12,886 nucleotides of DNA from a virus. Lineage: Duplodnaviria; Heunggongvirae; Uroviricota; Caudoviricetes. The stretch is from IMG/VR virus record IMGVR_UViG_2703718860_000015, one strand, 5' to 3'. This document shows positions 2,369 to 9,891 of the stretch, piece after piece. The notes under the pieces were generated by a model, which worked only from the letters and a program-made list of their open reading frames with translations, was not told the origin of the DNA and made no database searches. Both the position numbers and the translations under genes were made by a program. Position 1 is the first letter of the stretch. Every line of letters starts with the position of its first letter.

Positions 2369-2444
2369 TGGCTCCTCTGACTGGACTCGAACCAGTGACA
2401 TACGGATTAACAGTCCGCCGTTCTACCGACTGAACTACAGAGGA
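2369..2444 (-). tRNA. asnT: tRNA-Asn (anticodon GTT)
   Basis: 76-nt reverse-complement match to the E. coli tRNA-Asn sequence (UCCUCUGUAGUUCAGUCGGUAGAACGGCGGACUGUUAAUCCGUAUGUCACUGGUUCGAGUCCAGUCAGAGGAGCCA), including encoded CCA. Which asn tRNA copy it is follows from the mtfA/serU neighbours. Confidence 0.95.
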
Positions 2445-2544: not shown

Positions 2545-3342
2545 TTAATGAACATTCGTCGCCGAAAACGAGTCTGTATCATTAGTGCGATGCAGTCTCT
2601 GCAAAGGATCTTGTTGATAAAATTGGCAGAAACGTTGCCACAATGAAGGGAAACGAGGAGCAAAAAGTTCTGGGGCGCTAAAGAAATATTCAGAAAGTAC
2701 GGCAAAACATTCAGCAGGATCACTGGCAGCATAAGCATCAATGCTCGCCGCATTCTCGCCAACCAATTCGATTTCTTCCTGAATGTTGTTCATTGCAGCA
2801 TGAAGATCGTGTTCCCAGCCAGCAACCTCACGCAACGGAATAAAGGGAACTCCGCTGGCGCGATCGCCGTTACGGGTGTCCAGCTTATGAGCGACTTCAT
2901 GAATAATCAGGTTAAAACCAGAAGCATCAAAAGAATCTTGTATATCCAACCAGTTCAAAACGATAGGCCCTTGCTGCCAGCTCTGACCTGACTGAACAAT
3001 ACGTTGGTTATGCACCAGACCGATATCGTCTTCCCATTCATCATCGACCACAAATGGCGCAGGATAAATTAAGACTTCATGAAAACCATCCAGCCATTCC
3101 AGTCCTAACTCCAGAACGGGTAGGCAAAATAGAAGTGCTATCCGGCAGCTTCTTAATGAATCCAGTTCAAAGCCCTGTAAAGGAACAAGCCGCTTTTGCT
3201 GTAAAAAACGTTCGGCAAGAGTGACTAATTTGCTTTGTTCCTGTTCCGTCAGACACGTTAAAAGGGGGATCGATAGTGCTTCCTGCCAGGGAAGGGCAGT
3301 TTGATGTGCTGATTCTTGTACTTTCCAGGGCCACTTAATCAT
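2545..3342 (-). CDS. mtfA: MtfA (Mlc titration factor A, YeeI), 265 aa
   Basis: ORF-track protein contains [28 protein letters not shown]...HEVAH (zinc-metallopeptidase motif). The track ORF starts at GTG 3381; I place the start at the in-frame ATG at 3342 (MIKWPWK), matching my recollection of the K-12 MtfA N-terminus. Stop TAA at 2545-2547. Confidence 0.93.
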
Positions 3343-3435
3343 CGTTTTGCTCGCAAACTCGTCACTTGAACAAAATTGCACGGACAGGGACTGTTAAAAT
3401 GCCAAATTTCCTGGCATCATGGCAACCATCTGAAC

Positions 3436-3525
3436 GGAGAGATGCCGGAGCGGCTGAACGGACCGGTCTCGAAAACCGGAGTGGGGGCAACTCCACCGGG
3501 GGTTCAAATCCCCCTCTCTCCGCCA
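3436..3525 (+). tRNA. serU: tRNA-Ser (anticodon CGA)
   Basis: 90-nt sequence GGAGAGATGCCGGAGCGGCTGAACGGACCGGTCTCGAAAACCGGAGTGGGGGCAACTCCACCGGGGGTTCAAATCCCCCTCTCTCCGCCA: long variable arm, CGA anticodon, encoded CCA. Confidence 0.95.
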
Positions 3526-3571
3526 GAATTCAATCACTTACACATCATTAAGTCAATGATGAAAATCACAC

Positions 3572-3606
3572 TTGGAATTACTTGGAATATTTTGTTGGAA
3601 TATTCT
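3572..3606. repeat. Three direct repeats TTGGAAT(A/T)T, candidate integrase arm-type (P'-like) binding sites in attL
   Basis: cTTGGAATTA (3571-3580), cTTGGAATATT (3581-3591), TTGGAATATTc (3596-3606), 47-81 bp from the tRNA 3' end, overlapping the int stop codon and last codons. Placement is analogous to lambda P' arm sites. Confidence 0.35.
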
Positions 3607-7401: not shown

Positions 7402-7590
7402 TTATCCAGCCGGTATTTCGTTATTCAGGTACAGCGATACTTTGTTTAACGGGAGACATTCACCGGAAATTTTTTGCTCGTCTCTTGCCTGATGGCAGGA
7501 TTCTTTACTGGCATAAATTCCGGTAATCACATTCTGTGGCTCACCCGTTATAAGAAAAACAGTCATTACCAGTGCAAATGCAGAAGTCAC
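7402..7590 (-). CDS. Hypothetical small protein with hydrophobic N-terminal segment (62 aa from GTG 7590, or 54 aa from ATG 7566)
   Basis: ORF-track protein MTSAFALVMTVFLITGEPQNV... The GTG start overlaps the upstream ORF stop (GTGA, 7590..7587). No recognisable homolog from memory. Start codon uncertain. Confidence 0.4.
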   Translation of the reverse strand: MTSAFALVMTVFLITGEPQNVITGIYASKESCHQARDEQKISGECLPLNKVSLYLNNEIPAG

Positions 7591-7775
7591 TGCTGCCCCC
7601 CGAAAATACCAAGTTTAAGAAGGGCAATTCTGGAGAGTATGGAATTATCATTGAGAAGATAAGGCTCATATTTTCTCATCTTAATGGCATCTTCAGTAAA
7701 CTCCCGGTTACTGAGCAGAACACCAATATCAAAACACCCTTCAGACGTATTAACGTTTGGTAATAACGTTTCCAT
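7587..7775 (-). CDS. Hypothetical small phage protein, 62 aa
   Basis: ATG at 7775 with GAGGA 7-8 nt upstream; protein METLLPNVNTSEGCFDIGVLLSNREFTEDAIKMRKYEPYLL.... Coupled to the downstream small ORF. Confidence 0.45.
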   Translation of the reverse strand: METLLPNVNTSEGCFDIGVLLSNREFTEDAIKMRKYEPYLLNDNSILSRIALLKLGIFGGQQ

Positions 7776-8576
7776 TATCGCGTCCTCAACAATGAATTTT
7801 GTGATGTGGTGCCTGGTGCCTCCAGGTGACGTTAACCAGTTAACAATTAACGCCGGAATACAGAATCACCCATAACGCTGTTTTTAGCTTTAACTGTTCC
7901 GCGTGCGCTTAGCCGCATTCACCGCATCACAAAATACACTTTAAAAATGGCGGATATCCATTTCCACCGAATCACCAGAAAAGTGATAACAGAGGTTGTT
8001 GTGGCGGTGTTGTCACTCAGGCGTATGGTCAACCTGACAACCCGGTGCATTTTCTGGAGCAATGGAGGAAGCCCCAGCCATACTTACCGCCGCGCCATTT
8101 CGCGGATTGCCACAACCGGAAGCGCACGATCGAATTACATTTAACGACGACATATACAGAGAGACTAACTTCGCCGAGCGCTTTCGTGTTATGCCCTGAC
8201 TTTTCAGGGATATGTTCTTTCAGTAAACTGTCAGTGCCGGATTCTTATCCGTGTCCGGCGCACGACCACACGTGACAGCGTGTTGGTCTCCATCATTAAC
8301 CCGGAACCTCTATGGAGGATAATATGCAAGTTGATATTATTAGCCCTGTAATGATCCATATGCTTGCGCACATCAGGCTCTTCTGGCACTAATCAACGTC
8401 GGAAAAATTGAAAATTCCGCTATGTGCTTTGAAGAGTTGAAACAACTTGTGCGCTTGTATGAATATATTAAAAAACAATCACAAGATACGGCGTAATATT
8501 TAAAATACTTTCTGTTATATGGGCCTGCTATAATGCTGGCCCATATTTCTAACCCCTCTATAAGAAAAACATATTA

Positions 8577-8990
8577 TTATGGCAATTTCTTCGGTAGCTC
8601 TTCAGAATGCTGAGTTGTTTTAATTATGGTTTTTAAATAATCATCGCTTTCATATTTGAGTGATTCTATGGCAATCCAGATGCGGGCTTTGGTGCCTGCA
8701 TTTGGTTCCAGTTGCTGTAGACGTTTTGCATCTTCCAGTAGTAAGGCGATAACGTGTTTCAGCTTCTCATCATTCGCTTGATTCTTGTTTTCAGGCGAAT
8801 TTTGTCCGCCGAATGGCCACTTTTCTTCGTACAGCCCGATAAAGGTTCGACGCACGTTACCGGATATATTATCGATGGTTTCTTTTTCTACGGTACTCAG
8901 GTCAAGAGTCGCCAGTTGAGAACGAACTATATTCGCTGCCATTTCCTGGAATGGTACTGGTAAATCTTTAAATTCCATCGTCAACCTCAT
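8577..8990 (-). CDS. Hypothetical early-left protein, 137 aa (133 aa if started at ATG 8978)
   Basis: ORF MRLTMEFKDLPVPFQEMAANIVRSQLATLDLS.... ATG 8990 overlaps the stop of the upstream 50-codon ORF (TGATG); the alternative ATG at 8978 has a GAGG 6 nt upstream. Sits where lambda carries N / early-left accessory genes; no homolog recognised. Confidence 0.6.
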   Translation of the reverse strand: MRLTMEFKDLPVPFQEMAANIVRSQLATLDLSTVEKETIDNISGNVRRTFIGLYEEKWPFGGQNSPENKNQANDEKLKHVIALLLEDAKRLQQLEPNAGTKARIWIAIESLKYESDDYLKTIIKTTQHSEELPKKLP

Positions 8991-9409: not shown

Positions 9410-9700
9410 TTAACAGGTTTTGTTTGGATACTGTCTTCGTGAGTGAACTACATTTACGATCTCGATGTTAGATGCTGTTACTCGGTAAAGTATTATGTAG
9501 TTAGGATGAGTCACTATCTCACGAAGACTTGGAACTCTTTCGCTCGGTGGGTACAGATAAGGGTGTTCAGTAAGTGACAAAACTGATGTTTCAATGCGTA
9601 TTTTTAGTCTACGTGCAGCGGGAGGGTTTTCCTTAGCAATATAGGCTACGATCTGACGTAAATCATCACGTGCAGAAGGTAGCCATAAAATGGGCAGCAT
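9410..9700 (-). CDS. parE: ParE-family type II toxin (ParE2-like), 96 aa
   Basis: Protein MLPILWLPSARDDLRQIVAYIAKENPPAARRLKIRIETSVLSLTEHPYLY...YIILYRVTASNIEIVNVVHSRRQ has the ParE/RelE-fold pattern. ATG 9700 overlaps the antitoxin stop (TAATG). Confidence 0.9.
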   Translation of the reverse strand: MLPILWLPSARDDLRQIVAYIAKENPPAARRLKIRIETSVLSLTEHPYLYPPSERVPSLREIVTHPNYIILYRVTASNIEIVNVVHSRRQYPNKTC

Positions 9701-9891
9701 TACTCACTCCTGTTCGTTGCAGCTAATTGAGCAATAAGGTTTTCCATTTCAGCCATTACTTCGTCATGTGGAATTGCAGGACGGGGATCTGAGAGGCTTG
9801 CTGCCACTTTGGCTCGCAACCATTCGTTATAGCTGTTTTCTTGTTCGACTGTTTCAAATTCAGAAATTATCGGGGAAAGGGCTGTACTCAT
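9700..9891 (-). CDS. paaA: PaaA-type antitoxin of ParE (PaaA2-like), 63 aa
   Basis: Small acidic protein MSTALSPIISEFETVEQENSYNEWLRAKVAASLSDPRPAIPHDEV... directly upstream of and coupled to the ParE toxin; GAGGAGG 7 nt before the ATG at 9891. Resembles the PaaA2 antitoxin of E. coli O157 prophages as I recall it. Confidence 0.85.
   Translation of the reverse strand: MSTALSPIISEFETVEQENSYNEWLRAKVAASLSDPRPAIPHDEVMAEMENLIAQLAATNRSE

Follow-up and report, generated by a model that had tools for sequence, protein, structure and literature searches.

A probable dicF-dicB untranslated region carrying a short DicF-like RNA in the early operon of a Qin/Rac-like prophage

We analysed a 12,886-nucleotide (nt) stretch of Caudoviricetes DNA (IMG/VR record IMGVR_UViG_2703718860_000015, hereafter the window), in which a 0.8-kb block at 7776-8576, within the early-left operon on the minus strand, is poor in open reading frames (ORFs). 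We take the prophage to be Qin/Rac-like and integrated at tRNA-Ser, and the block is probably the untranslated dicF-dicB region of its dicBF-type early operon; it would contain a 39-nt relative of the small RNA DicF together with an inserted module. It is a variant of a known arrangement, since a long untranslated stretch precedes dicB in many Escherichia coli prophages. The only point that may be new is the small RNA itself, which is short and DicF-like, escapes Rfam, lacks the validated pairing segments of DicF and is common in Shiga-toxin-producing E. coli (STEC).

The region upstream of dicB and its short DicF-like RNA

Positions 7776-8264 align at ~85-90% with the ydfC-dicF-dicB spacer of the Qin prophage of E. 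coli K-12, which is untranslated in K-12 as well. Matches at ~84% to the same positions are found in many prophages and temperate phages of E. coli, those in phages covering query bases 1-489, and in phage Tritos DicF is annotated beneath the matching stretch. From the dicB start codon to ~8270 the window is collinear with both K-12 Qin, where dicF is b1574, and Tritos. The remainder of the block, 8265-8576, lies outside that homology and was found in 48 of 5426 complete E. coli genomes (~1%); judging from these alignments, it is part of an inserted module. A comparison across related prophages had been proposed in a preliminary description of this DNA, and it reveals 7776-8264 as a conserved scaffold with a variable dicF position. 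That description had held that intact longer genes in relatives would mark the block as simply degraded. This is true of a plus-strand ORF in the inserted part, which is intact in relatives, but the remaining block is noncoding in every relative examined, including K-12.

The short RNA sits exactly at the dicF position when the window is aligned to K-12 Qin and Tritos, ~175 nt upstream of dicB and between homologous flanks. It is composed of a single-stranded 5′ tail of 13 nt (7981-7969), a terminator hairpin (7968-7949) that is listed by the terminator scan, and a U-tract (7947-7943). The hairpin has a 6-bp stem and an 8-nt loop, is followed by AUUUUU, and has a predicted energy of -9.2 kcal/mol. 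The K-12 sequence at the aligned position is UUUCUGGUGACGUUUGGCGGUAUCAGUUUUACUCCGUGACUGCUCUGCCGCCCUUUUU; with the U-tract included, K-12 DicF measures 58 nt and the short RNA is 19 nt shorter. Common to the two are the first 10 nt (UUUCUGGUGA, 10/10), the GGYGG/CCGCC base of the stem, the U-tract and both flanks, whereas nt 11-15 differ and, inside the hairpin, 10 unrelated nt stand in place of the inner 26 nt of DicF. A small RNA was among the options raised in the preliminary description. This option is supported by the minus-strand hairpin and terminator homologous to DicF (7981-7943), an element that coincides with none of the features flagged there.

The short form was found in 442 of the 5426 complete E. 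coli genomes (~8%), mostly STEC and including O157:H7 strain 86-24, while canonical DicF was found in 3975 of them. Strain 86-24 is cited in PMC7873438 as the strain used for the study of DicF in the virulence of enterohaemorrhagic E. coli (EHEC). There was no match to the short form in 50,697 deposited phage genomes. Among 80 dicB loci on viral contigs it occurs in 12, with one and the same sequence in all 12; these have GGCGG where the window has GGUGG, and the window copy thus forms a G·U pair in place of the G-C pair of the others. The lack of a RefSeq annotation for the short form was dropped as a meaningful observation, canonical DicF copies being equally unannotated in those records. 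A literature search with the sequence string of the short RNA retrieved no paper, although Melson & Kendall 2019, Faubladier & Bouché 1994 and Murashko & Lin-Chao 2017 were outside its reach.

Upstream of the small-RNA position the untranslated region continues with near-invariant blocks and includes, at 8077-8054, a hairpin that can be replaced. Along the region, highly conserved blocks (96-100%) take turns with less conserved patches (64-78%). The hairpin at 8077-8054 occurs as two unrelated sequence types that both fold, CUGGGGC/GCUCCAG in the window and CGGGG/CCCCG in K-12. A conserved coding frame in 7982-8264 was rejected for either strand because of frame-breaking indels among homologues. 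The loop of the 8054-8077 hairpin, read as minus-strand RNA, includes UUCCUCC (UUAUUCCUU in K-12), which is complementary to a Shine-Dalgarno sequence such as the GAGGA of dicB at ~7782-7786. It is conceivable from this complementarity that the loop regulates dicB in cis.

On the minus strand the genes are arranged in the order ydfA-like, 137-amino-acid (aa) gene, block, dicB and ydfD-like (Table 1). RefSeq labels the identical sequence dicB, and strain FHI_NMBU_10 carries the identical sequence with the same RefSeq gene labels, in a prophage that adjoins tRNA-Ser, mtfA and tRNA-Asn. Since the gene identities (DicB, DUF1482 and DUF1391) and the RefSeq labels agree, the operon is taken as a dicBF-type early operon of a Qin/Rac-like prophage. 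The two traits that mark such an operon, a DicB gene directly downstream of an untranslated region and DUF1391 and DUF1482 genes on the same strand, are both present. The flanking regions are tightly packed, as had been described, with dicB and the ydfD-like gene overlapping by 4 nt.

It had also been noted that the block has no minus-strand ORF of at least 60 aa. The ORF listing agrees: between 7775 and 8577 the minus strand holds ORFs of 52 aa (8231-8389, the maximum), 47 aa (7919-8062) and 46 aa (8013-8153). Two mechanical plus-strand ORFs that had been passed over, of 65 aa (7947-8144) and 76 aa (8045-8275), have their frames broken among relatives by indels of 2-4 nt in the alignment. The absence of long ORFs equals the chance expectation for noncoding DNA. 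What exceeds chance in the block is its homology, the fold of the 495-nt RNA of the region (z-score, z = -3.56 relative to shuffles) and the fold of the 147-nt leader described below.

Table 1. Features of the block and of its neighbouring genes (positions in the window)
Feature	Position	Strand	Evidence
Short DicF-like small RNA, UUUCUGGUGAUUCGGUGGAAAUGGAUAUCCGCCAUUUUU, 39 nt	7943..7981	-	dicF position in alignment; terminator scan; fold
Structured dicB leader (dicF-dicB spacer)	7776..7942	-	predicted fold, consensus structure, conservation
Conserved untranslated region preceding the small-RNA position (homologue of the Qin ydfC-dicF spacer)	7982..8264	-	alignments, conservation profile
dicB, cell-division inhibitor gene, 62 aa	7587..7775	-	Pfam DicB PF05358, 124.4 bits, E = 1.4e-36, 62/62 residues; directly downstream of block
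ydfD-like gene (DUF1482)	7402-7590	-	Pfam 57.2 bits; downstream of dicB, overlapping
ydfA-like gene (DUF1391), 50 aa	8990-9142	-	Pfam 101.8 bits
Frameshifted remnant of a 57-aa ORF (61 aa from upstream ATG)	8324..8496	+	intact relatives; one C missing between 8351 and 8352
Terminator-like hairpin with loop TATAAT	8517..8546	+	inverted repeat, fold
137-aa gene	8577..8990	-	phrog_1363, E = 3.7e-41; no Pfam, NCBIfam or PADLOC family; upstream of block

The dicB leader, its predicted processing and the predicted targets of the short RNA

The spacer between the short RNA and dicB is predicted to fold into a structured leader. On the minus strand, 7942-7776 has a minimum free energy of -51.3 kcal/mol (z = -4.2), with a predicted long-range stem between 7929-7920 and 7811-7802. 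The stem encloses a hairpin at 7854-7828 formed by a GTTAAC repeat, a second one at 7826-7812 (CCTGG/CCAGG) and a hypervariable central loop at ~7890-7851. Outside the central loop the leader is 97-100% conserved over 50 distinct sequences. In an RNAalifold consensus of 15 distinct homologues all pairs are retained via G-C/G-U or A-U/G-U changes, and because these changes are one-sided only, covariation neither proves nor contradicts the structure. Both repeats had been pointed out in the preliminary description, which placed GTTAAC-CA-GTTAAC at exactly its true position, 7831-7844, and CCTGG-TGCCT-CCAGG one base away from its own, 7812-7826. Its suggestion of a regulatory site survives in the form of a structured mRNA leader, the two repeats being hairpins of the conserved dicB leader.

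The Rfam model of STnc100 (RF02076) matches the leader at 7743-7950 (minus strand) with 34.5 bits and E = 2.1e-5, and thus does not reach its gathering score of 47. The dicF-dicB spacer of K-12 Qin gives the same sub-threshold match, and homologous leaders score 29-38 bits. By the Rfam criterion the leader is not an STnc100 member, but it may be a distant relative. A piece of the E. coli dicB leader was also met with in the record of Aeromonas phage AP1 (MT713136.1, 254 kb), where 249963-250142 (180 nt) is 93.9% identical to it; this could be either a transfer event or an assembly contaminant.

How would such a region work? Early termination combined with RNase E cleavage is a route by which small RNAs arise from 3′ untranslated regions (UTRs) and from within operons, according to PMC9438474. 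By analogy with K-12 DicF (Faubladier 1990, as related in PMC5069750 and PMC9438474), the operon transcript would terminate partly at the hairpin 7968-7949, and a cut by RNase E just 5′ of UUUCUGG would release a small RNA of ~34-39 nt. Transcripts that read through would be processed in the long-range stem of the leader, after which dicB would be expressed. In K-12, a 72-nt DicF made by RNase III ends 19 nt past the 53-nt form, as stated in PMC5069750. This end falls at the 5′ foot of the long-range stem, and we infer that the stem is probably the RNase III site. The hairpin terminator would also limit the expression of the toxic DicB, since only read-through transcripts would reach dicB.

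Would the short RNA act on the targets of DicF? According to PMC5069750 (Balasubramanian et al.), the 5′ part of DicF pairs with xylR, where the site lies in the first 10 codons, and the 3′ part pairs with ftsZ and pykA. K-12 DicF and the short form were compared by a search for the longest exact complement. For xylR, 10 nt of K-12 DicF (nt 6-15) are perfectly complementary to +10..+19 (codons 4-7); the short form retains only GGUGA of this segment and has no complement longer than 6 nt, at unrelated positions. For pykA, an 8-nt complement of K-12 DicF to the ribosome-binding site (nt 30-37) compares with none longer than 6 nt in the short form, again at unrelated positions. The CGGAG patch of K-12 DicF on the Shine-Dalgarno sequence of ftsZ is absent from the short form. 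Likewise, the ftsZ/pykA pairing segment (CUCCG / UACUCCGU) is absent, and the longest complements elsewhere are 5-6 nt, which is chance level. RNAduplex-style energies against ftsZ, xylR and pykA were dropped as non-discriminating, since even the K-12 DicF-ftsZ pair was within one standard deviation of shuffles. Because all three validated pairing segments are missing, we predict that the short RNA would not repress xylR, pykA or ftsZ. Division inhibition from this operon would presumably rest on DicB alone, and the short RNA, if active, would act on other mRNAs via its 13-nt 5′ tail.

Variation at the dicF position and the inserted module

The RNA at the dicF position could be classified in 79 of the 80 viral-contig dicB loci, and at least four types occur between the near-invariant flanks. 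Canonical DicF, which scores above the Rfam DicF threshold (72.5-76.7 bits in the copies scored), is present in 40 loci. A new 5′ tail with the 3′ part of DicF retained is found in 22 loci (58-62 bits), the short form, without a match, in 12, and other forms in 5 (29-36 bits, a range that includes the Rac/kilR type). In the Rac-type loci (L010-L012) the same conserved leader and an RNA hairpin of the "other" type, sub-threshold for Rfam DicF, stand before kilR instead of dicB. Since the leader and hairpin RNA precede kilR there, one upstream RNA scaffold is common to two different division inhibitors, KilR and DicB. Faubladier and Bouché reportedly described dicF-like sequences in Rac and other prophages in 1994.

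Ten of the 80 loci carry an insert of ~880 bp between the conserved leader and dicB (for example L019, L020 and L069, at about 450-1500). It contains isrK (64 bits), a C4 antisense RNA (78-79 bits) and a 232-aa ORF, and looks like a P1/P7-type immunity or antirepressor cassette inside the dicB operon.

The part of the block beyond the Qin homology is occupied by a plus-strand ORF and a hairpin. Together with the convergent gene of 133-137 aa (phrog_1363) they make up one travelling module, found upstream of dicB or kilR. The ORF of 22 codons at 8324-8392, MQVDIISPVMIHMLAHIRLFWH, had been located and read correctly in the preliminary description, but its spacing from GGAGG (8314-8318) is 5 nt rather than 6. 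Its 22-aa peptide is the product of a frameshift, the frameshifted N-terminus of an ORF of 57 aa, or 61 aa from an upstream ATG, that is intact in L003, L005, L009 and L010-L012 and corresponds to the RefSeq hypothetical protein WP_001376375.1. Strain 2014C-3097 (NZ_CP027449.1, 4,506,903-4,507,076) is one carrier of the intact allele. The earlier idea of a decayed gene thus applies to this ORF only and not to the block as a whole, and as far as the sequence tells, the plus-strand ORF of the window is a pseudogene. The same frameshift is seen in five of nine viral-contig copies, with two different RNA types at the dicF position, and in a spread sample of 25 genomes a gene is called at the ORF in 14 and not in 11. 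Two haplotypes of the ORF, with the frame open in both, differ at 9 nt (2 synonymous and 6 non-synonymous differences), as expected without selection.

A search for homologues of the 57-aa ORF found only near-identical E. coli proteins (at least 88% identity), and nothing with known function was matched by the 57/61-aa ORF or by the 137-aa protein in Pfam, PHROGs, NCBIfam and PADLOC. The intact product is largely polar with a charged C-terminal half, and has no hydrophobic run of at least 18 residues. A promoter scan returned none convincing for the ORF, the sole candidate -10 abutting the ATG. Rfam finds no antitoxin RNA in the window, and the ORF has no PADLOC or Pfam family. The type I toxin locus that had been considered earlier is therefore not supported, as a hydrophobic stretch that could span the membrane is missing from the intact product and no overlapping gene for an antisense RNA turned up.

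The inverted repeat ATATGGGCC/GGCCCATAT is exactly where it had been reported, at 8517-8525 and 8538-8546. Its loop does contain TATAAT, but is not 12 nt long: the stem gains GC/GC across a T·T mismatch, and the loop is the hexamer TATAAT. The hairpin, at -19.5 kcal/mol, is matched by none of 200 shuffles; folding of both strands, as had been suggested, gives z = -5.5 (plus strand) and -5.2 (minus strand), besides the minus-strand value given above for the leader. It follows the stop of the plus-strand ORF by 21 nt and precedes that of the convergent 137-aa gene by 31 nt. The L009-type haplotype has U-A in place of one C-G pair, a compensatory change, and A-U in place of the T·T mismatch. A U-rich tail is found on the plus strand only (UUUCU in the window, UUUUU in the L009 type), and the consensus terminator scan does not list this hairpin. 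Given its position after the ORF stop, the compensatory change and the U-tail restricted to the plus strand, the hairpin is best read as a putative terminator of a plus-strand unit. A promoter role of TATAAT was rejected, as the scan has no -35 partner and the hexamer sits in a hairpin loop; a match to the IsrM terminator at this hairpin is spurious (16 bits, gathering score 376).

The 137-aa protein is a mosaic, residues 5-58 and 73-119 matching different PHROG families of no known function, and in some relatives (L006, L007) RefSeq calls a 119-aa product in its place. In L003 (strain 2012EL-2448), IS1A at 2886-3583 takes the place of the genes upstream of the module, and the operon is truncated just above the TATAAT hairpin.

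Elsewhere in the window, tRNA-Asn is at 2372-2444 (minus) and tRNA-Ser at 3436-3522 (plus); the integrase gene starts 56 nt past tRNA-Ser, which agrees with integration at serU. In the early-left operon, between the repressor gene and the ydfA-like gene, the minus strand at 9410-9891 encodes a RelE/ParE toxin of 96 aa and a RelB antitoxin of 63 aa, as annotated by RefSeq on the identical sequence. With Rfam, both the gathering and the permissive thresholds yield in the window just the two tRNAs, the sub-threshold STnc100 match and the spurious IsrM match.

Alternative explanations and comparison with known systems

Several points weigh against the reading of the block as a dicF-dicB region with a DicF relative. 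The Rfam DicF model (RF00039, gathering score 48 bits) gives no match to the short RNA at the gathering threshold, at E <= 1 on 1.6 kb or at E <= 10 on 91 nt, whereas K-12 DicF as positive control scores 76.7 bits. Because of this, the homology of the small RNA rests on its position, the 10 shared 5′ nt, the terminator base and the flanks. Its hairpin alone folds no better than shuffles (z = -0.9), and the terminator scan of the region returns 2 sites where 1.5 are expected, which is no excess over chance. The identity among short-form copies is no proof of selection, all of them coming from closely related E. coli prophages. Two-sided covariation in the leader was absent among the 15 distinct homologues, the paired columns being invariant. 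For this locus, moreover, transcript termination, the cuts by RNase E and RNase III and the binding of Hfq are all extrapolated from K-12.

Some of these points would also suit a short element that is a non-functional remnant, its target-binding parts destroyed by internal replacement or deletion, working solely as an intra-operon attenuator and a leader for dicB. The three missing pairing segments, the silent Rfam model, the weak hairpin and the G·U pair of the window copy all agree with such a remnant, which we regard as possible but unlikely. Nevertheless, 10 nt of the 5′ tail, the base of the stem, the U-tract and the processing context have all been retained, and the 10-nt loop region AAAUGGAUAU is no sub-string of DicF, which implies replacement and not simple decay. 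Furthermore, the short form is widespread and uniform, and the alternative RNAs of other prophages at this position still fold as terminator hairpins, which suggests a turnover of functional RNAs. Such turnover could be carried further, to a dicF position that is an exchangeable small-RNA cassette in a fixed processing scaffold, the short form being a functional DicF paralogue with its own targets; we put this forward only tentatively. The scaffold would consist of the conserved block upstream, the base of the terminator and the RNase III leader, with the 5′ and 3′ targeting parts each exchanged among prophages independently of the other. Both parts would then be present in canonical DicF; one variant would have only the 3′ part, which pairs with ftsZ and pykA, and the short form only the first 10 nt.

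A different account, and in our view a rather doubtful one, is that the near-invariant blocks are kept mainly as homology junctions for the exchange of lambdoid modules (the RNA position, dicB/kilR and the upstream cargo), and not for an RNA function. One leader before either dicB or kilR, the frameshifted ORF allele paired with two RNA types, the sharp alternation of conserved blocks and variable patches, and the insert between leader and dicB in some loci are all in line with it. However, the conserved blocks fold much better than shuffles, the replaced patches still form hairpins, and the K-12 region holds mapped RNase E and RNase III processing sites (PMC5069750). The two explanations are not mutually exclusive. 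Very unlikely, finally, is a plus-strand gene for a small protein or a toxin as the functional unit, expressed against the direction of the operon; the gene would be the 22-codon ORF, or the 57-aa ORF from which it derives, with GGAGG in front. Such a gene could claim the strong Shine-Dalgarno sequence near its ATG, the terminator-like hairpin that follows the ORF, with its compensatory change and its U-tail on the plus strand, a frame open in two haplotypes 9 nt apart and the presence of the module in three contexts. On the other hand, the ORF is frameshifted in the window and in most of the viral-contig copies, roughly half of the listed genomes have no gene call, and the substitutions follow the pattern expected without selection. 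Its homologues are confined to E. coli and belong to no family, a convincing promoter is lacking, and the intact product, unlike type I toxins, has no membrane-spanning hydrophobic segment. We therefore favour the untranslated dicF-dicB region with a short DicF relative as the probable explanation.

DicF, a classic prophage small RNA, connects sugar metabolism with cell division and, in EHEC, with the expression of virulence genes. Counts of DicF copies rely on similarity to K-12 or on the Rfam model, from which the short form escapes; the short form occupies the same operon slot across hundreds of Shiga-toxin-producing strains. If it is expressed, a deletion of "all" dicF copies would leave it in place, with targets predicted to differ from those of DicF; if the dicF position is indeed an exchangeable cassette, the short form would add to the four Rfam-type DicF copies reported for EHEC. 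The locus illustrates one processing scaffold hosting different small RNAs, and for annotation it explains a recurrent "gene-less" gap of 0.5-0.8 kb in prophage early operons.

Compared with known systems, the locus is closest to the DicF/dicBF operon of K-12 Qin (RF00039), with which it shares ydfA, the untranslated region, dicB and ydfD in this order and flanks that are 85-100% identical. K-12 Qin differs upstream, having ydfB-ydfC where the window has the 137-aa gene and the antisense ORF. The other RNAs at the dicF position, upstream of dicB or kilR, have in common with the short form the near-invariant flanks and a GGYGG...CCRCC hairpin followed by UUUUU. In the type with a new 5′ tail the tail of DicF is replaced and the ftsZ and pykA segments are retained, whereas the short form retains the 5′ tail of DicF alone and is the sole type without any Rfam signal. 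STnc100, a prophage-associated small RNA of Salmonella and E. coli, resembles the leader over its full length, sharing the GGUGAAU motif and the GUUAAC and CCUGG-AGGCA-CCAGG hairpins. Its described copies lie elsewhere in prophages, e.g. downstream of stx2 or by Fels-1-type genes (PMC12370729; bioRxiv 10.64898/2026.05.13.724894), and, unlike the element described here, they are not dicB leaders. With small RNAs of the SroC and CpxQ type, which derive from 3′ UTRs or from within operons, the short RNA would share its proposed making, a terminator inside the operon and a processed 5′ end, and no sequence relationship.

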